Positions 11,807-33,961 of a stretch of DNA of 34,970 bases are shown here, piece by piece (position 1 is the first letter of the stretch; each line of letters starts with the position of its first letter). A program made the translations under genes and the position numbers. Origin of the DNA: a virus (lineage: Duplodnaviria; Caudoviricetes); IMG/VR virus record IMGVR_UViG_3300043764_000020, positions 1 through 34,970 of that record. One strand, given 5' to 3'. Below the pieces are notes generated by a model. That model saw only the letters and a program-made list of their open reading frames with translations, did no database searches and was not told the origin of the DNA.

Positions 11807-12724
11807 TCAGGCGGCGACTCCGTTGGCCTTTGCCCACGCCTCCAGGGCCCTGTAAGCGGCCAGCGTGTTCGGGTCGACCGCAGGGACCGGGACCGGCGTC
11901 GGAGTCGGCACAGGGGTCGGCTGCGGCTGCGGAGAAGGCTGCGGAGCGGGCGCCGGAGCCGGGATCGGGTTGGCCTGCCCGGTGAGCGCGGCGAACGCCT
12001 GCCCCAGGGAGTACAGGTCGATCCCCACCGGAGCCTGCCCGTTGGCCGCGATCCAGTCCGGGGTGATGATCACCCAGGCCTCATCGACGTACTTCGTCCA
12101 GAACGCCGGGGTCATCTCCTGGACAGCCCCCCAGGTGATGCACACGAGGTTGCCGTTCGCCTTGTAGCCGACGACGGTCACACAGTGGCCGCCCTCCAGC
12201 TGGGAGCCTCGCACGACGTCCCACGGCTTGCCCTGGTTGAACTGGTCCATCGCGGACGCCGGGAAGTTGAAACCGATGTCGACGGCGCCGAAGAGGTCCA
12301 CGGCCTGCTTGATCAGCGTCATGTTGCTGACCTTCACCGAGGCGTACGCGGTGATCTTGTGCCCGGAGACGCCGTTCTTGCGCCAGTAGCCCAGGATGTC
12401 CTGGATGTAGGCGCCCTGGTCGGTGCTCGGGTCAGCGGGGTTGTACCCGGCCGCCTTCTCGTAGAGGGAGATCACGTCAGAGTTCGCGATGGTGGCCGTG
12501 GTGCCCAAGGCGTAGGCCGTCCAGCCCTGAATCAGGTGACCCACAGCGGCGCACGTGCAATCGCCTAAAGCGTCATTCCCGTACATAGGCCACGAGTTGA
12601 CCTTCGTGTACCAGTCCACGGACGTCGGAGGAGCGGGGAGCGACCCGGTCAGGTGGTCTTCGAGCCGCAGCTGAGGCCGCGCGGGCTGTGCATGCAACCG
12701 GCCCAGGGGTAAGTGAGAAGACAT
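11807..12724 (-). CDS. papain-like (C1A-type) cysteine peptidase, candidate endolysin
   Basis: NDALGDCTCAA catalytic Cys, GGHCVTVVGY catalytic His, TWG; Pro-rich linker and short C-terminal helix; 2 TTA codons. Confidence 0.8.
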   Translation of the reverse strand: MSSHLPLGRLHAQPARPQLRLEDHLTGSLPAPPTSVDWYTKVNSWPMYGNDALGDCTCAAVGHLIQGWTAYALGTTATIANSDVISLYEKAAGYNPADPSTDQGAYIQDILGYWRKNGVSGHKITAYASVKVSNMTLIKQAVDLFGAVDIGFNFPASAMDQFNQGKPWDVVRGSQLEGGHCVTVVGYKANGNLVCITWGAVQEMTPAFWTKYVDEAWVIITPDWIAANGQAPVGIDLYSLGQAFAALTGQANPIPAPAPAPQPSPQPQPTPVPTPTPVPVPAVDPNTLAAYRALEAWAKANGVAA

Positions 12725-12796
12725 CGGCAGCCTTTCTTGCAGGATTCCTAACTAAAAAATTTACCCCCGCTGACCGCAGCGGGGGCAAAGGCGAGA

Positions 12797-13501
12797 TCAC
12801 ATCTCGTTATGAGAATCCTTTGAACTGCTGCGGTTGGCTCCTCTGCGGACGTTGCAAATCCAGTGGGCTATCCGGCTGTTGGCCCGGGTGTGCGGGCCGC
12901 CGTGTGCTAGGGGTATGACGTGGTCCAGTGACTGGGACCAGAGATCCGGCCACTCCAGCAGGGGGTCGACCGGCTCGGTGCAGATGCCGCAGATCCAGCC
13001 GTCCCGCTGTCCGATCTCTTCGCGGGTGAACTCCTCGGAGTCACCGTTGTCCCGCTTGCGGGCCCGACGACGGTGAACGGCGTTGATCCCCTTGTCCGGG
13101 TTCGCCTGCTGCCAGGCCTTGATCCGCTCGGCGCACAGTTCGGGGTTGCGGGCCAGGTACGCAGCGGATGCTGCACGGTGGGTTGCCTGCCGCGCCTCCC
13201 GCTGCTCCGGTGTCAGGGAGGCTTCCCAAGCCTGGTGCCACTGTGCCCGCTTCTCGCGGTTGTCTTCCTGCCACTGCCGGTACGTCGCCTTGTTCCGCTG
13301 GTATTCCGCCTGCCTCAGCGTGCGAACGTGCTCGGGGTTATCCGCTGCCCGCCGCTTCTTGTAGGCGCTGTGGCACTCCAGGCAGCGGGCCTGCCGTCCG
13401 TCCTTCTTGCGCTTGTCCGTTGAGAACGCCGTCAGGGGCTTGGTCTCCCGGCAGGTGGAGCACGCCTTAGACGGCTCACCGGGGGCACTACTATGGGTCA
13501 T
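12797..13501 (-). CDS. free-standing HNH endonuclease with N-terminal Zn finger
   Basis: CSTC..K..F..DG...CLEC; C-terminal CGIC..SLDHVIPLAHGGPH...N...AH..CN. Confidence 0.9.
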   Translation of the reverse strand: MTHSSAPGEPSKACSTCRETKPLTAFSTDKRKKDGRQARCLECHSAYKKRRAADNPEHVRTLRQAEYQRNKATYRQWQEDNREKRAQWHQAWEASLTPEQREARQATHRAASAAYLARNPELCAERIKAWQQANPDKGINAVHRRRARKRDNGDSEEFTREEIGQRDGWICGICTEPVDPLLEWPDLWSQSLDHVIPLAHGGPHTRANSRIAHWICNVRRGANRSSSKDSHNEM

Positions 13502-13750
13502 GTCGTCCTGTCTTCCTCAGGATGGCCACGACCCCGGGAGTGTTCCAGCACTCGCCGGGGTTTCTTCGTTCTCGATCTTACTCCAGCAGGCTTCCTGACA
13601 GTCTGTGTAACGGATCGACTACAGGCGAAAGGGTTGTACAGACAACCGGCCTTTTTCTGTGGCAATCGTCTCAGGCAGGATTTCCCGCAGACTGGGTAGC
13701 AGCAGTGGTTACCGATGAGTACCGCTGGTTGTATCTACCCCAAAAGAAGA

Positions 13751-13779
13751 GGCCCGGAGAGACTGGATCTCTCCGGGCC
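13751..13779 (-). terminator. intrinsic terminator
   Basis: GGCCCGGAGAGA / TCTCTCCGGGCC stem with TCTTCTTTT on minus strand. Confidence 0.75.
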
Positions 13780-13801
13780 GTTCACTCCCCCGTTACCGTC
13801 T

Positions 13802-13969
13802 TTACTGCGCGAGCTGCCGGGTCTGGAGGTCCGCCGTCAGGCGAACAGTGACCCAAGCCGGGAGAACCCGGACATCTTCATCCACCGAACTCCGGTCATT
13901 CCGGACAAGTTCACGGAACGGGTCCTCTGCACCGAAGGCATCGGTCATGAGGGCAGTGAAAACGGGCAT
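13802..13969 (-). CDS. hypothetical protein, 55 aa (MPVFTALMTDAFG...)
   Basis: Hand-translated; AGGAG RBS; terminator follows. Confidence 0.6.
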   Translation of the reverse strand: MPVFTALMTDAFGAEDPFRELVRNDRSSVDEDVRVLPAWVTVRLTADLQTRQLAQ

Positions 13970-14077
13970 AAACGACTCCTGGTGAAAAAAACGGCGGCGT
14001 GGCCGTTCACCGTCCCCCCAGATGGAGACCTTGTGAAGAACACACTACTCCGCTGACTCCGTGGCACCAGCAGTCAT

Positions 14078-14452
14078 CTAACGCTTCTTCGGGGACCGCT
14101 TCCGCTTATCTTGCGCCGAGAAGGCCACCCTCCAACGTCCCTCACCCACTCGGTGAATTGGGTCCAACGAGATCCCGACATCCAGATGCATCGCAGATGC
14201 ACGTAGCCGGTTGCGGACCTCCTCCGCCACGTCCTCCGTTGGGGCGTCCACACGCAAAGCGGGGCGCTCTCGGCGAACCGAGGGCTTATTGGCCTCCACC
14301 CACTTCTGGTACGCCTCTGTTACGAGTCTGTCGAAGTACCGCTGCACTTCATCCCGGTCCCGAGACCGGTCCACTGCACGCAGTGTGGTTTCACCAGTGG
14401 CCAGGTCTTCGAGGTCTCCGATGGACAGACGGCTGTCTCGTTCCGTTTGCAT
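14078..14452 (-). CDS. hypothetical protein (MQTERDSRLSIG...)
   Basis: AGGAG RBS; lower GC3 than neighbours. Confidence 0.75.
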   Translation of the reverse strand: MQTERDSRLSIGDLEDLATGETTLRAVDRSRDRDEVQRYFDRLVTEAYQKWVEANKPSVRRERPALRVDAPTEDVAEEVRNRLRASAMHLDVGISLDPIHRVGEGRWRVAFSAQDKRKRSPKKR

Positions 14453-14789
14453 GCTCTTGCGTCTCCTGGGTGGTGGTCTGGGCGTGCTAGGCACGCATGG
14501 CGAGACGACCGGCTCTGTACTCCCTTGATACTGCCTGGGGCGTATGTCCGATATCTGTTCGTTAGCTACATCTCGCCATGTTTCGCCACTCTGGGGCTCG
14601 GGTCAAATCGAGTGGCCTATGTCTCTACACTGTCACCTGCGAACTCTATCACCCATGTTTGTTAGTTGTTACGCGACAACTCTTTGCTTATGAGCCCTGC
14701 TACTACTAGCGCGTAACGGCGAAGATACGTCACACCCCAACCAACTCGCAACTAAAAGCGGGTTAGTTGAGGCTTGCAGGAAACCTGCG

Positions 14790-14972
14790 TCAAATGATGT
14801 CGCCGAGGCCTACGTTGAGGTAACCCGGCGCGCTGAACAGCCGCTTTAACTTCCCATTACCGCAGGTCGGACAGGGGTTCCCCTGCCATGCGTCCCGCTC
14901 CTCCACCGAAGCCGTGAGGTCTCGAACGTCTCGGCAGTCACTATTCGAACACCGGTACGAATAGGCAGGCAT
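14790..14972 (-). CDS. FmdB-family zinc-ribbon protein
   Basis: MPAYSYRC....C...CPTCG...LKRLFS signature; AGGAG RBS. Confidence 0.85.
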   Translation of the reverse strand: MPAYSYRCSNSDCRDVRDLTASVEERDAWQGNPCPTCGNGKLKRLFSAPGYLNVGLGDII

Positions 14973-14980
14973 GGCATCTC

Positions 14981-15307
14981 CTACGAGTCGTAGTGGAACT
15001 GAATATGCCCCGAAGGAATTCGGCGGCTTGGAATTAGGCACAGCGGGTAAAAGCAGCCGCCCCGGGTATTTCGCTCACGCTCTGTAGCTCTCATCCGAAT
15101 TACCGCGCACTCAGCGAAACAGGATGAACGACCGCATAATGCCCGGCGATCCAGCAGGTCAGACGCCCGGTCAGCGGTGTCCAAATAACCGGAGTAGACC
15201 GCTTCGCTTTCGCCGTACTCGCGGGACTGCTCCGCTGCCCTCAGTGCCCACTGGCGCAGCTGCTCAACCCTTTCCGAGGTCATCCCCGGATGCAGCCAGG
15301 CGCCCAC
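14981..15307 (-). CDS. hypothetical protein
   Basis: GGAGG RBS, TAGTG coupling to deaminase; start uncertain. Confidence 0.55.
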   Translation of the reverse strand: MGAWLHPGMTSERVEQLRQWALRAAEQSREYGESEAVYSGYLDTADRASDLLDRRALCGRSSCFAECAVIRMRATERERNTRGGCFYPLCLIPSRRIPSGHIQFHYDS

Positions 15308-15765
15308 TAGTAGCCACCTCCAGACGGCCACTGGACGGCTTCTGACGGCCTCTCCGCAGCCCAGGGCAGACCGGGTCCAGCGGGAGTCTCCACGAGGCTC
15401 ATGGCGCCTCCAGGGGTCACCCGCTCCACCGCATAACCGGAGCCGGTGGAGTAGACGACAGCCTTCACGCCGGACCGCTCGATAGCCGTCCAGCAGCGGG
15501 GGCAGGGCCGGGAGAGGGCCAGCCCGGACGGGGCCAGCCGGACCACGTAGAGGGTGGCTCCAGCGGCGTGTGTGCCGCGCAGGGCGGCCACCTCGGCGTG
15601 CACCGAGGAGCCCAGGTAGTCGATCGTCGGGGGGTTGCGGTGTTTGTTCGGGGCGCTGGAGAGGATGGATCCGCCCCGGACCACGAGGGCACCGTGTTTG
15701 AACGGGCAGTTTGAGAGCGCTGCATTACGGGCTGCCAGTTCAAGAAACCGCAGGTGGCGGCACAT
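15307..15765 (-). CDS. cytidine/dCMP deaminase-like protein
   Basis: KHGALVV, HAE and RPCPRC zinc motifs; GGGAGG RBS; motif variant at 15788-15802. Confidence 0.9.
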   Translation of the reverse strand: MCRHLRFLELAARNAALSNCPFKHGALVVRGGSILSSAPNKHRNPPTIDYLGSSVHAEVAALRGTHAAGATLYVVRLAPSGLALSRPCPRCWTAIERSGVKAVVYSTGSGYAVERVTPGGAMSLVETPAGPGLPWAAERPSEAVQWPSGGGY

Positions 15766-15821
15766 GTAGACCCTCCCGTCATGATCGGTATCTATCCTAA
15801 CGGTGGGGGCCATTTCACGAC

Positions 15822-17435: not shown

Positions 17436-17720
17436 CTACCGCCTGCGAGGCCGGTGGTACTGGATGTTCCGCTCCCGGTGCCAGACCAGGTTCATGGCGT
17501 CCTTGCGCTGCTCCAGGGTCTCCGGGGAGTACCGGAACAAGTTGCCCAGGAAGCGGCCGTGTACGTGGTCGTAGATGCGGTAGACCCGCTGGTTCTCCCG
17601 GTTCAGGACGCACTCCAGGGTGTACCGGGTGTGGACGGCGTACCGGTCACCCTTTTCCCGGGCGTACGCGTAGCGGGCTTCGATCTCTTCGATGCTGCGG
17701 AGCGGGGGCAGCTGGGTCAT
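17436..17720 (-). CDS. hypothetical protein, paralog of 17730-18026
   Basis: Shared RSIEEIEA.YA / YT.EC..N / YDHV.G.FL. Confidence 0.85.
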   Translation of the reverse strand: MTQLPPLRSIEEIEARYAYAREKGDRYAVHTRYTLECVLNRENQRVYRIYDHVHGRFLGNLFRYSPETLEQRKDAMNLVWHRERNIQYHRPRRR

Positions 17721-17729
17721 TCGGGTCTC

Positions 17730-18026
17730 CTAGAGGTCGCAGTTCCGGCGATGCAGCTGGTCCAGGTAGTCGTGCCGCTCGTACATCCACAGCAGTGCCA
17801 GCCCGCGCCGGGCTTCCTCCGGCTTGTACGGGTCTCTGCTGGCCAGCTTGGGCAGGAAGTGGCCTTCTACGTGGTCGTACAGGTGGTACGTCTTGCAGCC
17901 CAGCAGGTTCCGGGTGCATTCGACGGTGTAGCGGTCCGGGATGCTGAACCGGTGACCGTCCGCCCGCTTCTGGGCGTAGTCGGCTTCGATCTCTTCGATG
18001 CTGCGGGGCTTGGGCGGCCAGGTCAT
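17730..18026 (-). CDS. hypothetical protein, paralog of 17436-17720
   Basis: Same motifs; GAGGAG RBS; motif at 18057-18071. Confidence 0.85.
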   Translation of the reverse strand: MTWPPKPRSIEEIEADYAQKRADGHRFSIPDRYTVECTRNLLGCKTYHLYDHVEGHFLPKLASRDPYKPEEARRGLALLWMYERHDYLDQLHRRNCDL

Positions 18027-18839: not shown

Positions 18840-19406
18840 CTACAGCTGCGGGGTGTGGACGACTCCCCCGGAGCCCGCTGTGGCCACCGTGCGGATGATC
18901 TCCGGCATCAGCTGCGGGATCAACTGCCGCTGATCGTCGGAGAGTCCCAGCGACTCAATCACCCGCTCCAAGATCAGGAACATGGCGTCGGCCTGCTGCT
19001 CCTGCAAGGCGAGCTGCCGCTCCTCCACGCCGATCGCGTGGCACAGCTTGATGGCCTCCCGCAGCTCCTTGCGCTCCTGCATCCACAGGTCCAGCCATGC
19101 CGCCTCGTGCGACGGCATGACCTGCAAGGCGCCCTTGTCGTCGTAGTTCTGGTCGGTCAGCGGGAGCAGGTTCGGCGTCCACTGGGCCATCTGGGATTCG
19201 ATCCAGCGGACCATGCCCAGGGAGCGCCTGAAGGCCTCCACAGCGGCCTCTGTGGGCGTGATGTCTTCCGGCACATCGAACCCGCCGCCGAAGGAGTTCT
19301 CGTCCAGGATGCGGCGTCTCAGCTGCATCGCCTTGGTCCGGGCCACCTGCTGCTCCCGGGTAGGCCTCCCCCGCTGCGGTAAGTCGCCGTCACTCAGTTT
19401 CGGCAT
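18840..19406 (-). CDS. putative terminase small subunit (actinophage helical type)
   Basis: W..LW.QER..L....K.C.AIGVEERQL.L.EQQA...ILE.V...LGLS..Q pattern recalled from actinobacterial prophage TerS-like proteins; GAGG RBS. Confidence 0.6.
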   Translation of the reverse strand: MPKLSDGDLPQRGRPTREQQVARTKAMQLRRRILDENSFGGGFDVPEDITPTEAAVEAFRRSLGMVRWIESQMAQWTPNLLPLTDQNYDDKGALQVMPSHEAAWLDLWMQERKELREAIKLCHAIGVEERQLALQEQQADAMFLILERVIESLGLSDDQRQLIPQLMPEIIRTVATAGSGGVVHTPQL

Positions 19407-19638: not shown

Positions 19639-19650
19639 TTCTCTACCCTA

Positions 19651-21669
19651 TCAATCGCCCTTGGCGAATTCCTTGCCGTCGACAAGCATCGGGACGCCCC
19701 CGTTGATGTAGCCGAAGTAGTCCCGCCAGAGGTCGATCCCCTGCTTCTTGACCAGGTGGGAGAACTCAGGCTCAAGATCCTTCGGCATCAGAACGATCAT
19801 CGAGTCGTGGACCTCCATCAGCAGGCCCGCCCCGCCGATGCCCTCCTTCTCCGCCCGCTTGTGGATGCCCAGACGGTGCGTCAGCCCTTCGCCCTCCAGC
19901 AGCCAGTGCAGCATGTACTGGCCCAACGAGCCCTGGACGTACTGGTTCCAGGCCAACCGGGTGTCCTCGCCGAAGCGGATGTACCGGCGCTGCCCGCCGA
20001 CCAGCGGGACGTACTGGTTGCGCTTGGCGAAGCCCTCCCAGTACTCCAGGGCCTTGTTCAGCTCCGGGTAGGTGCGGTGGAACGCCGCGTGGACCGCCCG
20101 CAGCTCCTGCGGGGCCATCTTGACCTTGCCACGGGTCATCTTGACCATCATGTTCCCGAGCGTGTTCCACCCGGCGCCGTACTCCAGGGACAGGTTCGCG
20201 ACCTTGCCGACCTGGCGGGGCGAGCCGATCTGGTCAGCGGTGAACTGGTGCAGGTCGACGCCATCGAAATAGGCCTCCAGCATCTTCTGGCACTTCGAAA
20301 GCAAGGCGCCGAGGCGCAGTTCCGCCTGGGAAAGGTCGTACTCCATGATCACCCAGCCGGGCATGGTGTCCTCGACCTGCTTGCGGATCAGCTGGCGCGG
20401 GGTCGGCAGGTCATCCAGGCCGACGAACGAGAGCCCGTCCAGCTTTCCGTCATGCGGCATGGCCTGGAGGTTGGCCCGCTCGATGGAGAAGCGGGTGGAG
20501 ACGGTGCCCAGCTGGCGGACCCGGGCGCGGATCCGGTTGTCCTTGCCGCACTTGTCGGCCCACCCGGTGTAGTACATCGACTGCGCGCGGTCCAGCAGCG
20601 TGTAGATCTGCCACTCCCGGGCGTACGGCACCTCCTGCTCCGTCAGCTCCCGCAGTGCCTCGGAGTTCAGGGAGGGGGCGCCGGTCTTCTCGGAGCGGTA
20701 GGCGGGGACGAGTCCCAGGGAGGCGTGGCCGCGCCGGTTGATCTGGTCGGGGTCGCCGTAGAAGTACTCCTTGGCGTGGTCTCCGGTCGGCTCGAACGGC
20801 AACTGGGCGGCAAGTTTCCACTTGGCCTCGGCAACCCGCTGTGCGCACTCACGGGAGGCTTCCACGGCGTACGGCATGCCCCGGGACTCCTCCTTCACCA
20901 GGAGGTCCAGGACGGCCAGCAGGGTCGTCCGGAAGTGCTGGTACTGCGGGTGGGACGGGGTGCCGAACTCCCGCTTCTGCTCCAGGTACAGCCGCAGCGC
21001 CTTGTACGCGTCGTCGTCCGCGTACTCCTCCATGACTTCCCAGTTGGCCAGGTCGTAGCGGACGCCGCCCTTGTTGCCCCGCTTCTTCTTCTGGTTCTTC
21101 AGGTGCGCCTTGAGGCGGGTCTGGGAGTCCCGGCCGCCCTCATCGGGCCACAGCCGGTCGAAGGTCTCCTTCAGGCCCAGCATCTGACGGGGCCACAGCA
21201 CGTAGTTGCCGAGCATGGTGTCCCAGTACAGGTTCTTCAGCAGGTCGATGCCATAGCCGTGGCCCCAGCGGTAGTCCATGATCCCGTAGCGGGCCATGAT
21301 CACGTCGAACTGGGCGTTGTGGGCGATGAGCCGGTTGGATGCCAGCCAGCGAGTTAGCGCCTGCCACTCCTCCAGCGGGAGGTTGATCTCCTCGGCGGAT
21401 CCGAACAGGACGTCCTGCCCGCTCCAGCCGGGCTTGCCTTCCTCACCCTGGGCGAACGGGTAGGCGGCGGTGCGGATGTGCTCCGCGTCTTCGATGTTGT
21501 CCTCGAACCAGGCCACGGAGGCGGTGGAGATGCCGCCCTCATCGGGGTACAGGGAGGACGTCTCGAAGTCGAAGGCGACGGGCGTGGTGAGACCGGTCGG
21601 GAGTTGCGAGGGAAGTATGGCAACCCGGTGCACAACGGCTTTTCCGGGCTTCGTCAGCGTAGTCTGCAT
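19651..21669 (-). CDS. polA: DNA polymerase family A with 3'-5' exonuclease
   Basis: Exo FDFETS, AHNAQFD, YADDD; motif A YDLSQAELR, motif B R..GK..N....YG, motif C EVHDS. Confidence 0.95.
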   Translation of the reverse strand: MQTTLTKPGKAVVHRVAILPSQLPTGLTTPVAFDFETSSLYPDEGGISTASVAWFEDNIEDAEHIRTAAYPFAQGEEGKPGWSGQDVLFGSAEEINLPLEEWQALTRWLASNRLIAHNAQFDVIMARYGIMDYRWGHGYGIDLLKNLYWDTMLGNYVLWPRQMLGLKETFDRLWPDEGGRDSQTRLKAHLKNQKKKRGNKGGVRYDLANWEVMEEYADDDAYKALRLYLEQKREFGTPSHPQYQHFRTTLLAVLDLLVKEESRGMPYAVEASRECAQRVAEAKWKLAAQLPFEPTGDHAKEYFYGDPDQINRRGHASLGLVPAYRSEKTGAPSLNSEALRELTEQEVPYAREWQIYTLLDRAQSMYYTGWADKCGKDNRIRARVRQLGTVSTRFSIERANLQAMPHDGKLDGLSFVGLDDLPTPRQLIRKQVEDTMPGWVIMEYDLSQAELRLGALLSKCQKMLEAYFDGVDLHQFTADQIGSPRQVGKVANLSLEYGAGWNTLGNMMVKMTRGKVKMAPQELRAVHAAFHRTYPELNKALEYWEGFAKRNQYVPLVGGQRRYIRFGEDTRLAWNQYVQGSLGQYMLHWLLEGEGLTHRLGIHKRAEKEGIGGAGLLMEVHDSMIVLMPKDLEPEFSHLVKKQGIDLWRDYFGYINGGVPMLVDGKEFAKGD

Positions 21670-21800
21670 GGTGCTCCCAACGGCTCCACTGGTCGTTCGA
21701 GCCGCCTGTGAACCCCAGTAGGGACCTCCTTCGGTGGAGATCCCTACTGGGGGCTGTGGACATGGGATGGGTGTTTGGGGGCCATGCGCGCTCCGGAGCG

Positions 21801-22088: not shown

Positions 22089-22169
22089 GGGGTCTCACTT
22101 CCTAATAAGTGCTGGTCAAAGGTCACAACCATTTTAGCACGTACTAGGGCTAGTACCCCAGATAGACGA

Positions 22170-23968: not shown

Positions 23969-24033
23969 GTAACTCTCTTCGTTTGTACTGGTTTGACGTG
24001 TCTCTTCCGGATTAGCGCCGGGTCGCAGGTGCT

Positions 24034-24063
24034 ACGGTAGACACATTCGTTCGAGCGTGTCAA
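24034..24063 (-). promoter_or_regulatory. sigma70/HrdB-type promoter for ATPase-SSB
   Basis: TTGACA-18-TACCGT; -10 overlapped by an inverted variant of the phage motif (24030-24044). Confidence 0.65.
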
Positions 24064-24148
24064 CTGAGTCCCTAGGCCCGCTGAGCAGCGTTTCTTGCAG
24101 CGGGAGTTAACAGACTACACCGCAGGACTGACATAGCCCATGGTCGGC

Positions 24149-24544: not shown

Positions 24545-24657
24545 CGGTTCCACACTTTCGACTTGAGGCCCCTCCAGGGAGCCGACTGGAAGGGGTGGCC
24601 GCACAGAGCGGCGGCGAACCCCAGGACGGCCGCGAGGTACGCGATCAGCTCATCCAC
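24541..24657 (-). CDS. small hydrophobic protein, 38 aa
   Basis: Hand-translated MDELIAYLAAVLGFAAALCG...; overlaps both neighbours. Confidence 0.5.
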   Translation of the reverse strand: MDELIAYLAAVLGFAAALCGHPFQSAPWRGLKSKVWNR

Positions 24658-24808
24658 GGCGGTGCGTCCAGTCGTCCTCGGCCAGACGCTCCTTGATGGC
24701 CTCCAGGACGCCCGGAGACATCGTGAGGTGCACGACCATGCGGGCGTACCGCTTGGCCTCCCTGCGCTCCTTCCAGCGCCTCTCCAGGGCCCACAGCCAA
24801 TTCAGCAC
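24650..24808 (-). CDS. hypothetical protein, 52 aa (MLNWLWALERRW...)
   Basis: Hand-translated; GGAGGAGG RBS. Confidence 0.7.
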   Translation of the reverse strand: MLNWLWALERRWKERREAKRYARMVVHLTMSPGVLEAIKERLAEDDWTHRRG

Positions 24809-25050
24809 GGGACCTCCTCCTTCAGCGGGTTGACCAGACCCATCGCGACAGCCAGCGCCACCGCGTTCGTCCGGTCCTGGGCGCCGAGGGCAGGCTTGAT
24901 CGCGTGCCGCCAGTAGTCCCGGACCGTGTGGATGCTGATCCCCAGCCGCACGGAGATCTGGCCGTCCGTGCTGCCGGTGGAAGCCAGCTGGAGAATCTGC
25001 GTTTCCCGCACCGTCAGGCCGCTGCCCAAGGATTTGACCGCGAGGCTCAC
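24802..25050 (-). CDS. LuxR-type HTH protein
   Basis: LTVRETQILQL..TG....I...LGIS.HTV.......LGA.DRTNAV. Confidence 0.9.
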   Translation of the reverse strand: MSLAVKSLGSGLTVRETQILQLASTGSTDGQISVRLGISIHTVRDYWRHAIKPALGAQDRTNAVALAVAMGLVNPLKEEVPC

Positions 25051-25334
25051 AGCTGCTCCCCCTCGGCGGCCTTGAGGCAGGGCGGGCACATGTCGCCGTG
25101 CATGTCGCAGGCCCAGCCCAGGGACCGCGCGTGAGACCGGATCAGCTCCAGCCGCTCCGGCTTGGTCATCCGGTCGTTGACGAAGAAGTCCTCCTTGACG
25201 ACGGTCCCGCACTCGTCGCAGTAGACGCCGATCGCGCACGGGTACAGGGCGTCCGGGCCGTCGTCGTCGCTGCGGAGGATCGCCGAGGCGATGCCCGGGG
25301 AGACGAAGCGCACGCGCTTACCGAGGTACCTCAC
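25047..25334 (-). CDS. hypothetical Zn-binding protein
   Basis: CDEC...GW...D.CPPC; GTGA overlaps at both ends. Confidence 0.75.
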   Translation of the reverse strand: MRYLGKRVRFVSPGIASAILRSDDDGPDALYPCAIGVYCDECGTVVKEDFFVNDRMTKPERLELIRSHARSLGWACDMHGDMCPPCLKAAEGEQL

Positions 25335-26047
25335 GGAGACACCCGCCCGTGGTCGTTGAAGGCCTTCCACGTCTGGGGGAAGAGGACGGAGAACGTCTCT
25401 TCCATCTGCTCGGCCGCCATCTCAATCTCCCGCTGCGGGAAGCTGGGGAACGCCGCGTCCGCCCGGTGGGTGCGCAGGCTCAGGAACGCCATCAGGGAAC
25501 GCGGGTTGCAGGTGACGTAGGCGGAGCTGAACAGGCCGACCGGCAGGACCATCCGGGCCACCTCGCGGGCGATCCCGGCGTCCAGCATCTCCAGGTAGGC
25601 CCCGTAGGCGTCCTCGTAGGCGGTCATCATGTTGGTGACCATGCGGGCGTGCTGCTCGTCGGTGCCGGGTTCGAAGGCGTACGCGCCGGGCTTGCCGACC
25701 TGCACCAGGTTGCGGTCCCGGGCGGGCAGGTAGAACTTGGGCATCAGCTTGCGGTAGCGGCCGGACTCCTCGTTGTAGGACCAGCCGACCCGGTGACGCA
25801 TCCACTCGCGGAACACGAAGATCGGGGCTTCCACGAGGAAGGTCATGGAGGCGTGCTCGAAGGGGCTGCCGTGCCGGTCCCGCATCAGGAAGTTGATCAG
25901 TCCGGCGTTGGCGGTGGGGTGCCCGCTGTCCAGGGAGAGTTCCCCGAGGGTGGACACCCGGGCAGCGGCGGCTATGCCGTCGTCGTCGCCGACATGCTTG
26001 ATCAGCTTGGCGGTGATGTCGGAGGTGAAGACGATTCCAGGGGTCAT
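25331..26047 (-). CDS. thyX: FAD-dependent thymidylate synthase
   Basis: AARVS, HGSPFEH, EWMRHRVGWSYNEESGRY, REVARMVLP. Confidence 0.97.
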   Translation of the reverse strand: MTPGIVFTSDITAKLIKHVGDDDGIAAAARVSTLGELSLDSGHPTANAGLINFLMRDRHGSPFEHASMTFLVEAPIFVFREWMRHRVGWSYNEESGRYRKLMPKFYLPARDRNLVQVGKPGAYAFEPGTDEQHARMVTNMMTAYEDAYGAYLEMLDAGIAREVARMVLPVGLFSSAYVTCNPRSLMAFLSLRTHRADAAFPSFPQREIEMAAEQMEETFSVLFPQTWKAFNDHGRVSP

Positions 26048-26568
26048 CAGAACATCGCCTCCTGCTGGCGGTTCGAGGTGACGGCGGTGTGGACGGTGTG
26101 GACGGGGATGCCCTGTACCCGGGCCTGCCGGATGCAGTTCCGGGTGCCCTTGGACATGCCGTGCGGGGCGGCGATGACCAGGGCGGCCCTCGGGTCGGTC
26201 CTGCGGACCATCTCCCCGTTGCGGCGCGGTCCGGCGTACGGGCAGTAGTCCGGCTCCTTGCCGGGGTGCCAGATGTCGCCGGGCAGCTTCATCACCCGGT
26301 GTTCCAGGCCGGGCGGGCACTCGGGGCCGCAGTTGTCCCAGTCGGCGGGCATCGGGTCTTCGATGACCCCGAGTTCCTTGCAGTCCTGTGCCCACTCGGA
26401 CACGGCCTGGTCGATGGACTTCTCACCGGGGCAGGCGCCGTGGCGGACGATGACCCAGCCGGGCGCGTTCAGCACGTAGCGGGCCAGCTCGGTCAGGGCC
26501 AGCTGGGGGTTCGGGTGCCAGCGGGATCCGGTGAGGATGATCGCCGTGGTGGGGCCGATCTTGGTCAC
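26047..26568 (-). CDS. DUF2493 / YspA-like SLOG protein
   Basis: LTGSR, RHGAC, PADW, AGPRRNGEMV, SKGTRNCI..AR..GIPV. Confidence 0.85.
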   Translation of the reverse strand: MTKIGPTTAIILTGSRWHPNPQLALTELARYVLNAPGWVIVRHGACPGEKSIDQAVSEWAQDCKELGVIEDPMPADWDNCGPECPPGLEHRVMKLPGDIWHPGKEPDYCPYAGPRRNGEMVRRTDPRAALVIAAPHGMSKGTRNCIRQARVQGIPVHTVHTAVTSNRQQEAMF

Positions 26569-26720
26569 GACCCGGCCACCCAGCTGCCGGTCTTGCGGCA
26601 GTGACCGCAGGCCATCGTGGGGCGGACCCGCTGCCACAGGTTGCGGGAGACGACGGACGGCTGACGGCAGTTCAGGCAGAACAGGCGCACCATGCCGTTG
26701 GGGATCGAGTCAGGCTGCAT
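26565..26720 (-). CDS. small zinc-ribbon protein, 51 aa
   Basis: CLNC...CGHC; GGAG RBS; overlaps neighbours. Confidence 0.65.
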   Translation of the reverse strand: MQPDSIPNGMVRLFCLNCRQPSVVSRNLWQRVRPTMACGHCRKTGSWVAGS

Positions 26721-26922
26721 CGGAGATCTCCGGAAGGTAGTCCTTGAGGTGGGCCCAGGTGTTCCCGTGGATGGCGCGGCTGAGCGCGGTGCGCTTGCAG
26801 CCGTATTCCTCGGCGAGTTCGGCGATGGTGACGCCGCCCTGGCGGTACTGCTTGCGGGCGTCCCGGACGATCTCGTCGGTGAGAACGGCCAGGTGGTGCG
26901 CTGCACCCTTGCGTGCGGGCAT
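26710..26922 (-). CDS. HTH DNA-binding protein, 70 aa
   Basis: LTDEIVRDAR..Y....TIAELAEEYGC....LSRAI.G.TW; AAGGA RBS. Confidence 0.8.
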   Translation of the reverse strand: MPARKGAAHHLAVLTDEIVRDARKQYRQGGVTIAELAEEYGCKRTALSRAIHGNTWAHLKDYLPEISDAA

Positions 26923-26933
26923 GGGGGGTTTCC

Positions 26934-27929
26934 TTACTCGGCGATGCCGTTGAACTCGGTGGGAACCTGCTTGAACCCGAAGTCCCGCATCAGCTGGGGC
27001 ATGGCGGTGCCGCCCTTGCGGAGGAGGATGTGGACCTCCTTGAACTGGCACTTCCACTGGCATTCGGTCGGATTCGGGCCGCTGTAGATGGGGAGGTTGC
27101 CGCCGTAGGCCGCCTGGGTGGCCGCGAGAGCGTCCCTGCGGATGGCCTCCAGCTCCTGGGTGCCCCGGGGGATCAGGAGGCGCTGGTGGCGCTGCTCCAG
27201 GGTCTGTGCCTTGCCCTTGGTGGCGCCCGGCTTGTCGCCCGCGTTCATCGCCTTCTTGGCTTCGGAGCGGACGCAACCGTTGATGGCCTTGGCCTGCGGG
27301 TGATCGCTGGAACGGAACGCCCACTCGTACAGGCCGGTCTGGTCGTCCAGCTCCATGGCGAACCGGCTGGACAGGCTCTTGGCGGACTTGGACTCGATGG
27401 CGAAGATCCCGCCAAGGTCGTAGTCCTCCACTACCAGGTCGATCCGGTAGTCCAGGACGACGTCCCGGGGTCCCTTGGGGGTGGTGATGGTGCCGAGGGG
27501 AACCAGGCCCTTGTGCTCGACGTCCAGGATCCGCCACTGCGGGTCGCAGCCGTAGTGGGCCGTGTATCCGGCGTACATCCAGCGCAGGACGTCGTAGTCC
27601 TCGGGGTAGAGGCTGCTGTACTGCTCACCCTTGAGGGCGGCGGTGAGGGCGGCTTCTACGGTGTCCCGGGCGACGGAGAGCAGGCTTTCTTCCTCGGCAC
27701 TGCCCCGCTGCGGTGAGCGGCCGTCCAGGGTGTGGTCCTGGTAGGCCTTGATCACGTTGTAGTGGTTCTCAAGGACGCACTCGTGCCAGGCGGAGCCGAG
27801 GTCCAGCTTGGGGTCCTTGTCGATGACCCGGTAGCCCTGGTTGTAGTGCAGCCAGTGCTTGAGGGGGCAGTCCCGCAGCGTGGTCAGGCCCGAATAGCTC
27901 ACCTTGAGCGGTGGCATGGGGGTGGTCAT
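26934..27929 (-). CDS. PD-(D/E)xK RecB/Cas4-like exonuclease
   Basis: SYS....DCP, G..WH..LE, RIDLVV...IESKS, ECQWKCQF. Confidence 0.9.
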   Translation of the reverse strand: MTTPMPPLKVSYSGLTTLRDCPLKHWLHYNQGYRVIDKDPKLDLGSAWHECVLENHYNVIKAYQDHTLDGRSPQRGSAEEESLLSVARDTVEAALTAALKGEQYSSLYPEDYDVLRWMYAGYTAHYGCDPQWRILDVEHKGLVPLGTITTPKGPRDVVLDYRIDLVVEDYDLGGIFAIESKSAKSLSSRFAMELDDQTGLYEWAFRSSDHPQAKAINGCVRSEAKKAMNAGDKPGATKGKAQTLEQRHQRLLIPRGTQELEAIRRDALAATQAAYGGNLPIYSGPNPTECQWKCQFKEVHILLRKGGTAMPQLMRDFGFKQVPTEFNGIAE

Positions 27930-28099
27930 GAGGGGTCTCCGGGAGCAGCAGGGGAAGATGGTTCTATCCTAGCAACCCGCGTGAGGGGCCCTAGCACCCC
28001 GGGGCCACCAGAGGCGGTAGTTACCGGGGATGCCTCTGATCATACGCGTAAATAGCCCTGCAACAAGTCCTGCTGGAGTCCTGCATCCGGGCATGCAAA

Positions 28100-28128
28100 A
28101 GGGGGCACCGGGTGATCCGGTGCCCCCT
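28100..28128 (-). terminator. intrinsic terminator
   Basis: GGGGCACCGG / CCGGTGCCCC stem with TTTT on minus strand. Confidence 0.75.
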
Positions 28129-28140
28129 CGTGGTGCAGGG

Positions 28141-28395
28141 TCAGGCTGTGGGTGCCTCGATGTAGCCGCGCTCGATGGCGATACGGACGGCTTCCGTGGG
28201 GCTGCTCGCGCCGAGAGCGGTACGGCACGCTCCGACGTACGATCGCGCGGTGCCGACCGCGAGACCCAGCTCCCTGGCGATCTCGGCGTACTTGAGTCCC
28301 CGGGCGTAAAGCTGTAGGGCCTGCGCCTGGCGCGGGTACAGAGCGTGCTGGCGGGTGCGCTTCTCCATCCATGTGCTCTCGGCGACTGCTGTCAT
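28141..28395 (-). CDS. LuxR/sigma region 4-type HTH protein
   Basis: RQAQALQLYARGL.YAEIARELGLAVGTARSY.......LGA. Confidence 0.9.
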   Translation of the reverse strand: MTAVAESTWMEKRTRQHALYPRQAQALQLYARGLKYAEIARELGLAVGTARSYVGACRTALGASSPTEAVRIAIERGYIEAPTA

Positions 28396-28431
28396 AACGT
28401 TTCTCCTGTGGTATACGGGGCGTAGTGTTAT

Positions 28432-29058
28432 CTACCCTATGTCAGAGCTAATTCCTTCGACAAGCCCAGCCCTGATCAACCCGTGCCAGAAGTGCAGCTC
28501 AGAACTGCGCTGGTGGTCCCCCGTGCTGTGCCGGGCGGCGTTCTTCCCGGGAGGGGACACCGGCTTGATCCCGTGATCCCGCAAGATCGCCGAGGTCGGC
28601 CCGGTCAGGACCGTGTTCGGCTGCCAGTTCACCTGGATGTGCGGGGCGTACAGGATGCAGTGCATGCGCACCCAGCCGATCAGCTGGGAGGTGGGCATGG
28701 AGGATCCGACCAGCAGGTGGACCCGCTTCTTGTCCGGCCGGAACATCTCGCCGTAGATCACGTCGATGCCCGGCGTGTTCATGGCGAACCAGCGAATGAA
28801 CTCCTCGGGGTTCATCTCGAAGGTCTCGTAGACCCTCCAGCCGCGCCCCTGGACAACCCAGCCTTCGGGCGTCTCGGTGAGGTCGCGGCATCCCAGAGTC
28901 ACGCCGATGTGGCCGCCCTCGGGATCGCCGTCCTTGCCGCCCGGGTCGAGGCCCATGGCCACGGCGTCCTCATCGCTGGCACGGGGGTAGACCACGGGCA
29001 TCGGCCGTCCCCGGACGATCAGGGGCGTTTCGGGCGCCTGACGGGTGATGCTCGGCAC
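28432..29058 (-). CDS. RuvC-like resolvase
   Basis: MGLDPGG, VIYGEMF, IG..R, C-terminal H...SELH; position between helicase and exonuclease. Confidence 0.65.
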   Translation of the reverse strand: MPSITRQAPETPLIVRGRPMPVVYPRASDEDAVAMGLDPGGKDGDPEGGHIGVTLGCRDLTETPEGWVVQGRGWRVYETFEMNPEEFIRWFAMNTPGIDVIYGEMFRPDKKRVHLLVGSSMPTSQLIGWVRMHCILYAPHIQVNWQPNTVLTGPTSAILRDHGIKPVSPPGKNAARHSTGDHQRSSELHFWHGLIRAGLVEGISSDIG

Positions 29059-29061
29059 TGC

Positions 29062-29274
29062 TCAGTCCTCCAGGAATTCGACGGTGACCCGGGCCGGGAA
29101 AACCATGAACGTCTTCGGGTCCATCGGGTTCTTGCCGTTCGCGGCCCGCCTGATGTCGTCTGCGTCGTCGGGGTCGGACATCACGAAGACGTCTGCGTTG
29201 GTGCTGTGGTGCATCAGGACGCTTTCGGCCTTCTCACGGGACGGTGCGACGACGTACACGGTTCTCTCGGTCAT
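29062..29274 (-). CDS. hypothetical protein, 70 aa
   Basis: GAGGAG RBS; motif at 29306-29320. Confidence 0.8.
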   Translation of the reverse strand: MTERTVYVVAPSREKAESVLMHHSTNADVFVMSDPDDADDIRRAANGKNPMDPKTFMVFPARVTVEFLED

Positions 29275-29321
29275 GGGAGTCTCCTCGGGTGGGTGTCTCT
29301 TGGGTATATCTACCCTACCAC

Positions 29322-30809
29322 CTACAGGAGGGCCTTTACAACGCCCCAGGTCAAGGTGCGCATCTGGCGATCCAGCTTGGTGGCCAGCAGCTCCCGCTTG
29401 CCCTCATCCACAGACTCCGGGGTCACGTAGTCATACGCCATCACCGGGCGGTCCTGTCCGAGCCGGTGGACACGCCGCAGCGCCTGCTGGTTCCTGGACG
29501 GCTTCCAGCTGTGCTCGACAAATATGATCAAATCCGCCGCAGTCAGGGTCAAACCCTCCGAAACGGTCTCCAGGGAGCCCACCAGCACGTCCAGCTTGCC
29601 CGCCTGGAAGTCCGTGACGAACTTGAGCCGGTCGTCCTTGGAGGTGCGCCCGTCGATCTGCGCCACCTTCTTGCCCAGGGCCTTGGCCACCTCGGCGCAC
29701 GCAGTCACCGTGTTCTGGTAGTGGGCCACCACCAGCGTGGGCCGGGAGCGTTCGGCGAGGTCGAACTTCAGCTGCTCCAGCTTCCCGGACTCCTCGGTGC
29801 CTCCGGTGAACACTCCGAGCCCGGTGGCCATCTGATCCAGCTTCACGTGGGCGGCGCTCTTGGACCAGGCCACCAGCATCTTGCCGTCCAGCGTGTAGGC
29901 CAGGCACTCCTTCTTCATCTTCCGGTACTGCACGCCCTGCTTCGACGTCATCGGGGTCAAGATCGTCTGCATCTCCATGGGCGGCAGGTCCGGGAGCACG
30001 TCGTCCCGCAGTCGCTGGATGTACAGGTCGCCCAGGTTCTGCCGGAAGAACATCTCGTAGTGCTCGCACGGGTCCCAGGCGGGGCGCTCCAGGCAGTCCG
30101 GGTTGCACCACAGCAGGTCGCCGATCTCGCGCGCGTTCGGGTCCCAGTGGGAGGCGCCGACGTGGAACCACTCCTTGATCCACCGCCAGTACGAACCGAA
30201 CTTCTGACCATTACCGCACAGATGGGGGTAAAGCAGCTGGAGCGGGGAGAACAGTTCGGGGGCGAAGTTGGAGATCGGGGTGCCGGAGGCCATCCACAGC
30301 CGGTCGCACATCTGGGAGAGGATCTTGAGAGCGTCCACCCACGAGGTCTTGCGGCCCTTCAGCAGCTGGGCTTCGTCGCAGATGATCGTGTCCCAGTGCT
30401 GGTTGAACTCGGGGCGGGGCTCGGGGACCACGGTGACCCGGGCCCGGGTGCGCTTGAAGTCGCCGGTCTTGGTGAGGGCGGGCACCTTCTGGCCGGTGGC
30501 GTTCTTGGTGTAGACGATGTCGCCGGGGATGGTGACCCGCTGGCACAGGGACGTGTAGGGGACGTAGGTGAACCGGGAGGGGTCATCCGCCCACCGGTTC
30601 ACCTCGTTCCGCCAGGTCCCGGAGTCCAGGATCATCGCGGGGGCCAGGATGAGCGTCCGGCCCTCGGAGGCCTCTATGAGTTGTCTGGATTTTCCGAGTC
30701 CGGGGTCATCTGCCAGGTATGCCCTGGGATGCTCCCGTAGGAACGCTACCCCGGCCGCCTGGTAGGGCCGCAGGGCAGGCTTCACGGGCGCTTCGAGTAC
30801 CGCCGTCAT
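29322..30809 (-). CDS. SNF2-family helicase
   Basis: LRPYQ, DDPGLGKS, CDEAQ, SGTP, EGLTLT, QALRRVHRLGQ. Confidence 0.95.
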   Translation of the reverse strand: MTAVLEAPVKPALRPYQAAGVAFLREHPRAYLADDPGLGKSRQLIEASEGRTLILAPAMILDSGTWRNEVNRWADDPSRFTYVPYTSLCQRVTIPGDIVYTKNATGQKVPALTKTGDFKRTRARVTVVPEPRPEFNQHWDTIICDEAQLLKGRKTSWVDALKILSQMCDRLWMASGTPISNFAPELFSPLQLLYPHLCGNGQKFGSYWRWIKEWFHVGASHWDPNAREIGDLLWCNPDCLERPAWDPCEHYEMFFRQNLGDLYIQRLRDDVLPDLPPMEMQTILTPMTSKQGVQYRKMKKECLAYTLDGKMLVAWSKSAAHVKLDQMATGLGVFTGGTEESGKLEQLKFDLAERSRPTLVVAHYQNTVTACAEVAKALGKKVAQIDGRTSKDDRLKFVTDFQAGKLDVLVGSLETVSEGLTLTAADLIIFVEHSWKPSRNQQALRRVHRLGQDRPVMAYDYVTPESVDEGKRELLATKLDRQMRTLTWGVVKALL

Positions 30810-31442: not shown

Positions 31443-31664
31443 TCAGGCGCCCTGGGAGAAGTCCGGCTTGGCGGAGTTCTTCAGCGCGGCCTTCAGGACC
31501 GCCAGAGCGGCAGGCAGCGCGGCGAGAGCGACGGCCTTGGTGGCGCCCAGGCTCGTCAGGTTGGTGATGTCGGCCAGCTCCAGGCCCAGGAACGCCTGGA
31601 CGTATGTGGACACGGTGCGCTCCGCTAAGTCCTTGACGAACTCGCGGTTCAGGAACTTGTTCAT
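31443..31664 (-). CDS. holin (r1t-like actinophage family)
   Basis: F.KDLAER.VST..QAFLG..AA..A.LAVLK; two hydrophobic helices. Confidence 0.85.
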   Translation of the reverse strand: MNKFLNREFVKDLAERTVSTYVQAFLGLELADITNLTSLGATKAVALAALPAALAVLKAALKNSAKPDFSQGA

Positions 31665-31697: not shown

Positions 31698-32261
31698 TTA
31701 CCAGCCCCGCTGTACAGGGATGCGCAGCTCGGCCCCTGCGGGGACGTCTGCGGCAGTGGGGAAGCCGTTGGTCCGGGCGATCCGCTCGGCGTCCGCGTTG
31801 GACGGTGCGATCCACCCGCAGGCCCGCATGAGCAGGCGCAGGGGAAGTCCGGGGAAGACGGTGGCCTCCTGGTAGGGGACGCCGTCCTCGGGCCGCCTGA
31901 TGGGCGGCGGGAAGGCCTCGGGGAGGTAGCGGCAGTGCGCCCCAAGGACGTACTCCGGCCACTCCTTCAGGCCGTTCATGTGCGTGAGTGCCACGGCCGC
32001 CAGAGCGCTGTTGGACAGGGAGTCCAGCAGCCATTCCCGATCGCGCGGGGTGCTGTGTCCGGTGGCCTGCTGCCGGGTGTAGATCTGGAAAGGGCCGACC
32101 CGGTCTCCATCGACCTTGGAGCAGTCGGCCTCTCCCTGGACGGCTGACGCCGCGAGTGCGACGGCGGCAAGGATCTCCGCCATCTGCGGCTTCTGCCAGG
32201 TACCACTGGGCGCCCCGGCCGCGATCAGAGCCTGTCGGAGCTGAGCACGGGGGGCGCGCAT
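31698..32261 (-). CDS. degenerate lysozyme-like domain plus LysM-like domain
   Basis: AAVALAAS..GPFQI..LLD...SA.AA..W; C-terminal ERIARTNG......PAGAELRIP. Confidence 0.65.
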   Translation of the reverse strand: MRAPRAQLRQALIAAGAPSGTWQKPQMAEILAAVALAASAVQGEADCSKVDGDRVGPFQIYTRQQATGHSTPRDREWLLDSLSNSALAAVALTHMNGLKEWPEYVLGAHCRYLPEAFPPPIRRPEDGVPYQEATVFPGLPLRLLMRACGWIAPSNADAERIARTNGFPTAADVPAGAELRIPVQRGW

Positions 32262-32635
32262 CACTCGCCCTGCCTTGCCTGTACTTCGTCGTCGGACAAG
32301 GTCCACAGCAGCGTCTCCAGCTCGGGCGGGGTGCCCTTGGTGGGGTTGACGTCGTGCCGCCGCATGTCCGCGCGTAAGTCCACGATGTGCTTCAGGGCTA
32401 ATCGAAGAAGGCCTTCCACCCTGGTCATCTTCTCTTCCTGGACCTTGTACCGGTCCTCGAATTCTTCGATGCGCTCGTAGTAGGCCGTCTTGAAGGCCTC
32501 GAATTCGGTGAGCTTGACCTTGCGGTTTTCCGTGGCCGCAGTGCCCTTGGCCGCAAACCGGGTCCCGGCGTAGAGCGCGGCGCTCCCGAATATGCCTGCG
32601 CCCGCAGTGATGAGGGCTTCTAACGGAATGCTCAT
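32261..32635 (-). CDS. membrane-anchored coiled-coil protein of the lysis block
   Basis: N-terminal TM helix then coiled coil; lies between tail genes and holin; 3 TTA codons. Confidence 0.75.
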   Translation of the reverse strand: MSIPLEALITAGAGIFGSAALYAGTRFAAKGTAATENRKVKLTEFEAFKTAYYERIEEFEDRYKVQEEKMTRVEGLLRLALKHIVDLRADMRRHDVNPTKGTPPELETLLWTLSDDEVQARQGE

Positions 32636-32708
32636 TTAACTCGTCCCTCAGGAACCGGAATTGACTTTCCGAATGGTAGCAAACTGGGCTATTTCGGTTG
32701 AATCCCTG

Positions 32709-32975
32709 TTACGGGGTATCGGTGATAGTCCAGGACCGGGAGCCGGTGTCCGAGGCCGATACGGAAAGGTTGACCACCCACGGCAGCCCTGCACAGGCCT
32801 TCTGCATGGCGTCCACCAGCTGGTCGATCTGGTCCGCCGTCAGCAAACCCTTCGTGTCAAACGTGCCAGCTACGAAGTCGTCCGCGCCTGCCACGTAGTA
32901 ATTCGCCGAGATGTGCGCGTTCGACGGGATGTAGTCGGGACCGGTACCACCGCTGTAATTCCGCACCAGGGCCAT
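32709..32975 (-). CDS. hypothetical protein, possible tail-fibre accessory, 88 aa
   Basis: AAGAGG RBS, ATG 32975, follows tail gene. Confidence 0.75.
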   Translation of the reverse strand: MALVRNYSGGTGPDYIPSNAHISANYYVAGADDFVAGTFDTKGLLTADQIDQLVDAMQKACAGLPWVVNLSVSASDTGSRSWTITDTP

Positions 32976-32989
32976 GAGGCCTCTTTCTG

Positions 32990-33961
32990 TTAGGCGAGTT
33001 CTGCTGAGCCGGATAAACGGATGAAAGCGCCTGCACCCCAGGTACCGCCGCCCGGCGCTGCCCCGGACCCCTTGACCTGGGTAAAAGCGGGGGATGTCGT
33101 ATTGCCGGGCGCCCACAAGGTGTAGGAATTCGTGCCGGAAGGCTGGGCGGAACAGGGGAAACGTCCCGCACCAACGGTAGATATCTGCCCGGAAACGGTC
33201 TGGTTGTTGAGAGCGTTGGAGTTGAAATTCCAGGGCAGGCCGTCGATTGTCACGTTCCCGGTACCGAATACCGTGTCCGAGCCGAAGAACAACCACAAGT
33301 AGAAGTCGACCGTCTTGCCCCGCTGGATCCAGCGCAGGCCCTGGCTACCGGAGCCCAGCGTGAACGTGCCGGACGTGGCGAAGTTGATCTGGTAGGTGCT
33401 GTTCGTCCAGAAGCTGAGCGGCATCAGGTTGCGCCACTCGGTGCCGCTGTACACCTGGTCGCACACGAGGTCCGAGCGGAAGCAACGGTCCCCGATCACC
33501 GGGGCCGGGAACGCGGCATCCCGGGACGTCTGGCTACCGAAGCGCGGGATGACCAGCGGGTCCAGCGTGGAGGCGAGAGCTGCCTCCAGCGGGTCGTTCG
33601 ACGTGTACGGCAGCTTGGCCTTCGCCGTCTGCAACGGAGCAGCCGCATCCGCCGCCCGCTGGACTGCGATGGCCCGGGAGGCCGCCAGGTCCACGGCCTT
33701 CGGGGAGAGCGCCCACCGGACACCAGAGCCGAAGTCGATCCACAGCACACCGATGTAGTTGTCCGGGCCGAAGAACACGATCTGACCGTTGGAGTCCGAG
33801 GTCACCGCCGTAATCGACGCACCTGAGACGGTCTGGAGATCGGTGATCTGTGACCCGCCCGTGCGGGCGCTCCACACGTTAGCCGTGGCGTTGATGAACG
33901 GCAGACCGGTGGACCGGATGATGTCCCCGTCCCCTCCGCCGCCGAAAAGGTACCGGGCCAT
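32990..33961 (-). CDS. minor tail / tail fibre protein
   Basis: MARYLFGG..ARTGGSQITDL, RDAAFPAP, G/S/T-rich beta C-terminus with RW..RGKTV..GLP. Confidence 0.8.
   Translation of the reverse strand: MARYLFGGGGDGDIIRSTGLPFINATANVWSARTGGSQITDLQTVSGASITAVTSDSNGQIVFFGPDNYIGVLWIDFGSGVRWALSPKAVDLAASRAIAVQRAADAAAPLQTAKAKLPYTSNDPLEAALASTLDPLVIPRFGSQTSRDAAFPAPVIGDRCFRSDLVCDQVYSGTEWRNLMPLSFWTNSTYQINFATSGTFTLGSGSQGLRWIQRGKTVDFYLWLFFGSDTVFGTGNVTIDGLPWNFNSNALNNQTVSGQISTVGAGRFPCSAQPSGTNSYTLWAPGNTTSPAFTQVKGSGAAPGGGTWGAGAFIRLSGSAELA

Follow-up and report, generated by a model that had tools for sequence, protein, structure and literature searches.

In-frame TTA codons in the late genes of a soil actinophage family and their possible reading by the host bldA tRNA

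In Streptomyces, the leucine codon UUA is read by a single, developmentally regulated tRNA, bldA; Streptomyces phages are described as mostly avoiding the corresponding TTA, and according to one proposal bldA arose in part as an anti-phage defence. Here we describe a soil actinophage family in which TTA codons occur in the late genes, represented by the 34,970-base IMG/VR record IMGVR_UViG_3300043764_000020, which was analysed in its entirety (hereafter the window) and is a fragment of a genome of ~125 kb. Judged from sequence comparison, TTA in these late genes is a real feature maintained by selection, its sites turning over without loss. We consider it somewhat probable that late-gene synthesis is gated, gene by gene, through the bldA tRNA of a probable Streptomyces-type host, where the host, the bldA dependence and the timing are points that we infer. 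A phage family retaining TTA by selection in essential late genes would invert the defence view, in that the phage would use tRNA supply to sense host development.

The late genes resemble the Streptomyces bldA/TTA regulon (adpA, actII-ORF4, redZ) in the codon itself, its 5′ bias and its exclusion from growth genes (PMC4255298, PMC2000904). The 5′ bias has been described as specific to Streptomycineae (PMC4255298). In-frame TTA far above background (29/922 leucine codons in the near-complete relative G001 versus 30/22,614 in 80 Streptomyces chromosomal loci, our host-scale reference), 5′ bias and conservation among orthologs were all found in the late genes. The two systems differ in what is tagged: the host has TTA in about 2–3% of its genes, often regulators, whereas the phage family tags 21/33 late genes directly, all needed for particles.

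Phage-type structural genes are also timed through TTA in the phage-tail-like extracellular contractile injection systems of Streptomyces (eCIS, SCO4263), where 42/56 regions have a TTA gene (PMC10020575); that system, however, is a host machine that has been domesticated and is gated mainly by way of a regulator, whereas the present family is a complete phage with TTA across its structural genes. The Streptomyces phage phiHau3 has likewise been proposed to sense host state by a UUA in a packaging gene (PMC10732093, which also gives 1.91% as the share of genes carrying UUA in 161 phages). Its case is nevertheless the opposite one, since there inserts of 10 nt that begin with UUA break the frame and the tRNA acts to block the terminase, whereas in the window family the frames are intact and the tRNA would be required; a UUA joined to a short frame-breaking insert was not found in the family. 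In gut phages with stop-codon recoding, the structural and lysis genes are rich in a codon that the host reads poorly, which has been proposed to time late expression (bioRxiv 2021.08.26.457843). Those phages use reassigned stops and suppressor tRNAs of their own, whereas the codon here is a sense codon, and the search for a phage tRNA to match it was negative. A link to bldA has also been suggested for the nine TTA genes of Streptomyces phage CW39 (PMC13350457), which are HNH and hypothetical genes. No paper on direct TTA tagging of a phage late programme was found in the literature covered, which excludes most subscription journals. Such tagging would represent a new form of bldA/TTA control, with its function predicted.

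TTA codons in the window and in a near-complete relative

The original prediction placed ten in-frame TTA codons on the minus strand of the window, and each was found where it had been placed: codons 5 and 53 of a peptidase gene (11807-12724), codon 42 of an FmdB-like gene (14790-14972, start 14972), codon 57 of a 108-aa open reading frame (ORF; 14981-15307), codon 9 of a gene for a probable terminase small subunit (TerS-like; 18840-19406, TTA at 19380-19382), codon 13 of the holin gene (31443-31664, TTA at 31626-31628), codons 5, 79 and 87 of the gene for a 124-aa membrane protein (32261-32635) and codon 316 of a 323-codon minor tail gene (32990-33961, start 33961). These ten are the sole TTA among the 746 leucine codons of the 60 hand-curated window genes (8,937 codons). 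The polA, SNF2 helicase, thyX and 610-aa genes are TTA-free, as had been claimed, and ten replication-region genes together have 0/320, compared with 5/97 in the six tail and lysis genes and 5/329 in the remainder (tail and lysis versus replication, Fisher p=0.0006, permutation p=0.005). The five TTA sites in lysis and tail genes recur with 0 differences in contigs from X3, an independent soil run, so that these five are not assembly errors.

Among cultured phages, those nearest to the window infect Streptomyces, LazerLemon and Microdon (which we take to be cluster BH phages) being examples, at about 30–48% amino acid identity, and IMG/VR contains relatives far nearer than these. One of them, G001 (124,939 bases, 97% complete), is 76–84% identical to the window in helicase, exonuclease, polA, TerS-like and holin genes and has allowed TTA to be counted gene by gene over a near-full genome, as had originally been suggested. 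Its 200 genes were predicted with a gene caller treating TTA as neutral, which failed to pick up the 108-aa ORF and the start of the peptidase gene; the late set of 31 genes comprises the virion block, the GH25 endolysin and two tail-spike genes, with HNH and primase inserts excluded. With the classes based on annotation and position, but assigned once the TTA list was known, TTA makes up 29/922 leucines in late genes versus 13/1,918 in the other 169 (odds ratio (OR) 4.8, p=1e-6). When TerS and the peptidase are added to the late set, 21/33 late genes have TTA versus 7/167 others, and 14 replication and nucleotide genes have none (0/405 leucines). The late-gene codons are strongly biased towards the 5′ end, with 14/51 leucines being TTA within the first 20 codons versus 15/871 beyond (p=2e-11). 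For scale, the BH-type phage LazerLemon differs in having no TTA among 1,210 leucines in 81 genes. Portal, capsid, major tail, chaperone, tape measure and tail-spike genes are all tagged in relatives. The early/late split of the original prediction thus stands as far beyond chance, independent of third-position G+C content (GC3) and selected, but its confinement to packaging and lysis does not, as the tag spans the whole virion programme.

Local GC3 was checked as a cause and does not explain the main cases, being 0.93 in the holin, 0.91 in the TerS-like and 0.89 in the peptidase gene, none of which has CTA. A reading in which the TTA codons lack function, and come from drift, relaxed codon bias, an overlapping DNA signal or bypassing of the phiHau3 type, can draw on two of the ten window codons, which behave like drift, and on a GC3 of 0.67-0.82 in three of the seven window TTA genes. 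It is nevertheless barely credible, since late and other genes of G001 have equal GC3 (0.834 and 0.833), TTA is the most enriched in late genes of the 30 A/T-ending codons tested (CTA goes in the opposite direction, OR 0.5), and neither out-of-frame TTA enrichment nor a motif common to the TTA flanks was found there; the ortholog comparison below also speaks against it, with TTA retained about twice as well as other rare codons and replaced by ordinary leucine codons. A C follows TTA at 70/185 sites versus 186/891, but the sites are related and this bias was not used as evidence.

Retention of TTA across orthologs

Conservation of position in orthologs had been put forward as a check, and what is retained in many late families is the presence of TTA, while its positions change. 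Before dereplication, TTA is found in every ortholog of the capsid (18/18), major tail (13/13), chaperone-position (12/12), tape measure (12/12), TerS-like (11/11), holin (7/7) and membrane protein (7/7) genes, many of these raw rows being near twins. Dereplication at 90% nucleotide identity left 28 late families that passed the filters, with TTA always present in 13, variable in 9 and never present in 6, while it occurs in 0/14 replication families. Where diverged orthologs keep the same amino acid, TTA is retained at 0.52, compared with 0.08-0.31 for 16 other rare A/T-ending codons (the pairs are not independent), and the common codon GAA at 0.50. Several families have mutually exclusive sites, namely alignment column 17 or 47 in the capsid, 33 or 102 in the major tail and 64 or 81 in the chaperone, and the capsid gene has a single TTA in 17/18 orthologs. 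In the other orthologs the TTA columns mainly hold CTG or CTC, with frames intact and no bases inserted, and the TTA sites are therefore ordinary leucines.

Most of the ten window sites accordingly lie in families that retain TTA. Holin orthologs have it at codon 13 or 54, those of the membrane protein at shifting positions, and peptidase orthologs in the window family have 5′ TTAs; in the 108-aa ORF it stands at codons 57, 91, 91 and 5+64 in four orthologs and at codon 5 in a fifth, partial one. Two sites of the original list were not conserved. TTA in the minor tail gene occurs in 3/7 orthologs at differing late positions and is missing in the 97.8%-identical twin L038, while in the FmdB-like gene it occurs in 2/6 orthologs, namely the window and its twin; codons 316 and 42 of these genes are, on this comparison, probably incidental.

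The TerS-like gene lies behind polA and far from the large terminase subunit gene (TerL) in the window family, and directly after polA in most relatives. Homologs abut TerL in two contigs, upstream of it by 10 bp in L177 (E 1e-28) and by 2 bp in L062, and the product of 18840-19406 is therefore likely TerS; its label and those of the lysis genes in the original prediction are both borne out by synteny. Its best family is the unnamed phrog_3678, 3/36 distant members of which partly match the TerS family phrog_9231, and fold searches with the protein returned generic helical or coiled-coil matches only, with no specific TerS fold. After dereplication TTA is present in 7/7 orthologs, the sites being spread over 3 alignment columns; the window gene is without the codon-5 TTA typical of its family and retains a second one. 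A start at Met27, as in database gene calls, would leave the TTA outside the gene and was rejected, because Met27 is not conserved and the N-terminus is.

Host, tRNA supply and the predicted timing of late synthesis

While the mycelium is young and mature bldA tRNA scarce, the early genes, which lie behind a repeated promoter-like motif, would be expressed, the phage DNA would replicate or persist, perhaps plasmid-like, with the help of ParA and a tyrosine recombinase, and ribosomes would stall early on late mRNAs. Once bldA tRNA rises, as the culture enters stationary phase and begins aerial growth, capsid, tail, terminase, holin and lysins would be released together. G001 encodes ParA, a tyrosine recombinase, DUF2637 and GntR, a content that suggests a carried, plasmid-like state. 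That the phage replicates or rides plasmid-like in young mycelium, and forms particles only at the onset of colony differentiation, has in our view about an even chance. The virion block includes neither TerS, which is found in the polA region, nor the genes for lysin, peptidase and tail spikes; timing of these genes by the codon would therefore follow function, whatever their promoter.

The repeated motif (often TTGNNN-N17-TAGGGTAGA or TTGNNN-N17-TGCTAGGGTAGATAC) precedes small early-type genes, and we infer it to be a promoter; at four copies an ATG follows closely, which suggests leaderless mRNAs. There are 18 copies in the window (214-29317) and 47 in G001, one only within G001 49,400-89,900, so that the virion block is almost empty of them, and no late-promoter motif was evident by eye. 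Among leucines of the genes directly behind the motif, TTA amounts to 0/87 in the window, 0/419 in G001, 0/422 in G006 and 2/429 in G007. One copy (19642-19650, minus strand) heads a small gene overlapping the TerS start. TerS, which directly follows polA in most relatives and overlaps such a motif-headed gene in the window, is probably transcribed early, and since it is always TTA-tagged it is the clearest pointer to a timing set by the codon at the level of translation.

The same codon statistics also fit a rheostat, in which 5′ TTAs merely slow late translation (delaying lysis, protecting against leak in carriage or adjusting subunit ratios) and the cycle is completed in vegetative hyphae on basal bldA tRNA. 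This is possible but unlikely. Leaky UUA decoding has been reported, especially under high transcription (PMC4932002), and the highly expressed capsid gene has its single TTA in nearly all orthologs; any slow codon could act as a brake, yet CTA, CGA, AGA and CCA are not enriched in G001 late genes, and low-copy and high-copy proteins are tagged alike.

The sole tRNA found is tRNA-Leu(CAA), in 3/5 records (G001, G006 and G007). No UUA-reading tRNA with a UAA anticodon was found in the 97%-complete G001 or in the other family records, the window, a partial genome, being without any tRNA; a relaxed ARAGORN search gave noise only, and the phage tRNA gave short matches only against three host genomes. 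In L068, L069 and L070 the tRNA-Leu(CAA) genes (at about 1500-1583) differ in body, the three being dissimilar and 76, 76 and 83 bases long. It is conceivable, though quite unlikely, that the phage itself turns on UUA decoding late, either through induction of host bldA or through its own tRNA-Leu(CAA), which would misread the codon or be edited, the editing possibly being done by the second deaminase of the window (15813-15307) in a manner that would resemble gut-phage stop-codon recoding. The three dissimilar tRNA bodies are in line with such a timer, as are a separate, stronger dCMP deaminase match in G001, which leaves the window deaminase without an assigned substrate, and the precedent for code-based late timing (bioRxiv 2021.08.26.457843). 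However, no UAA anticodon and no sign of editing were found, the deaminase gene itself has TTA in 4/7 orthologs, and the CAA tRNA is simply accounted for by TTG use (154/2,840 leucines in G001 versus 694/22,614 in the Streptomyces loci).

A Streptomyces-type host is probable from indirect markers, namely TerD, ParA, the lysin and the nearest phages. The TerD of G001 is 80-84% identical to chromosomal genes, the best 80 being from Streptomyces in 79 cases and Streptacidiphilus in one (the search covered 49/64 parts of the genome collection); 18/19 plasmid matches of its ParA are Streptomyces, 9/10 matches of its lysin and 14/14 of the window tail gene are Streptomyces phages, and the best matches of capsid and TerL are Streptomyces or its phages. 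These same matches make it improbable that the host is another actinomycete, with a scarce or stress-regulated tRNA-Leu(UAA) and no bldA developmental programme. In favour of such a host, neither the capsid protein nor a prophage was found in the 401 Streptomycetaceae genomes searched, and the plasmid collection held no close match to the capsid. A distant relative, moreover, is a plasmid prophage in Saccharopolyspora pogona (L177 9773-31527, 50 genes) with 7 TTA among 1,009 leucines; late-block genes, among them TerL, capsid and tape measure, account for 6/7. This prophage also encodes ParA, DUF2637 and GntR, but its TTA codons have little 5′ bias, which speaks against such a host. As a host marker thyX was dropped: its identity is 62% with Streptomyces and 56-65% with most of the other Actinomycetes sampled, and it does not set the former apart. 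It matches 395/401 Streptomyces genomes at some level (search for spacers and prophages with window DNA as query, which scored one or two candidates per genome, thyX being listed, and so gives no measure of spacers), tallies that include the unpublished genomes G142, G418, G435, G442 and G446, on which no other result depends, and a metagenome scan with thyX added nothing on the host.

Several points weigh against gating through bldA tRNA, apart from the order in which gene classes were assigned and the negative capsid searches. UUA is leaky in some bldA mutants, with a CAA tRNA as candidate misreader (PMC4932002), and the family itself encodes such a tRNA-Leu(CAA). Six of the late families never have TTA and nine vary, G007 has two TTA genes directly behind the early-type motif, and the TerD, ParA and lysin markers of the host were taken from G001 and not from the window. 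Particle formation confined to differentiating colonies, if true, would explain why the family recurs in soil metagenomes without close cultured relatives. With simple reporters the pattern could also serve to gauge the tightness of the bldA gate, and it hints that the missing soil phages might be cultured on sporulating solid cultures or under bldA overexpression.

Other genes of the window and its relatives

The TTA-free replication block (19651-30809, minus strand) holds helicase, exonuclease, thyX, Sak4-like recombinase and polA genes. The 610-aa gene, counted with it above, is of the primase/polymerase family (4302-6134, minus strand; phrog_5177, E 7e-86) and is adjoined at 4089-4207 by short tandem repeats with a GGATTACA core, possibly an origin. 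Two tandem paralogous small genes, about 42-44% identical, occupy 17436-18026.

Within the lysis cassette the holin belongs to phrog_443 (E 4e-12; PF16945), and a tblastn search with it against named phages gave no match. The 124-aa membrane protein, to which its position would assign a lysis role, has a homolog of 32% identity in LazerLemon, three genes ahead of the endolysin on its upstream side. The 187-aa gene that follows (31698-32261, minus strand) is TTA-free in the window, 0/7 orthologs have TTA, and profile searches gave no family match. The start of this gene and the stop of the TTA-bearing gene for the membrane protein overlap, and the two may be translationally coupled.

The peptidase is papain-like (C1-type), with a probable lysis function; its Atlas cluster at 0.97 has PF00112 on 24% of members, and homologs 51-55% identical in two other phage contigs stand between tail genes and lysin and holin-like genes and are without TTA. 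At the same locus L006 has a non-orthologous peptidase with a shared C-terminus and TTA at codon 4. Upstream of the window peptidase an HNH endonuclease is inserted (12797-13501), absent from the 97-98% identical twin L014. Next comes a conserved low-GC3 block (13802-15813; GC3 0.67-0.79) with the deaminase, the 108-aa ORF, the FmdB-like zinc ribbon (PF09723, E 1.5e-6, under the curated cut-off), a 340-base non-coding gap and 124-aa and 55-aa genes. The 108-aa ORF is cysteine-rich, conserved and of no assigned family; it is coding, because its divergence falls mainly at third positions.

In G001, a C92-like amidase gene and its neighbour (38612-39398) have 7 TTA, and two TTA-rich genes lie just upstream of TerL (50738-52329); both pairs stand outside the late set, and since their TTA-rich state is conserved in G006 and G007 they are probably further late genes. 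A 1,931-aa head-region gene (59587-65382) has 5′ TTAs and a C-terminal ADP-ribosyltransferase domain.

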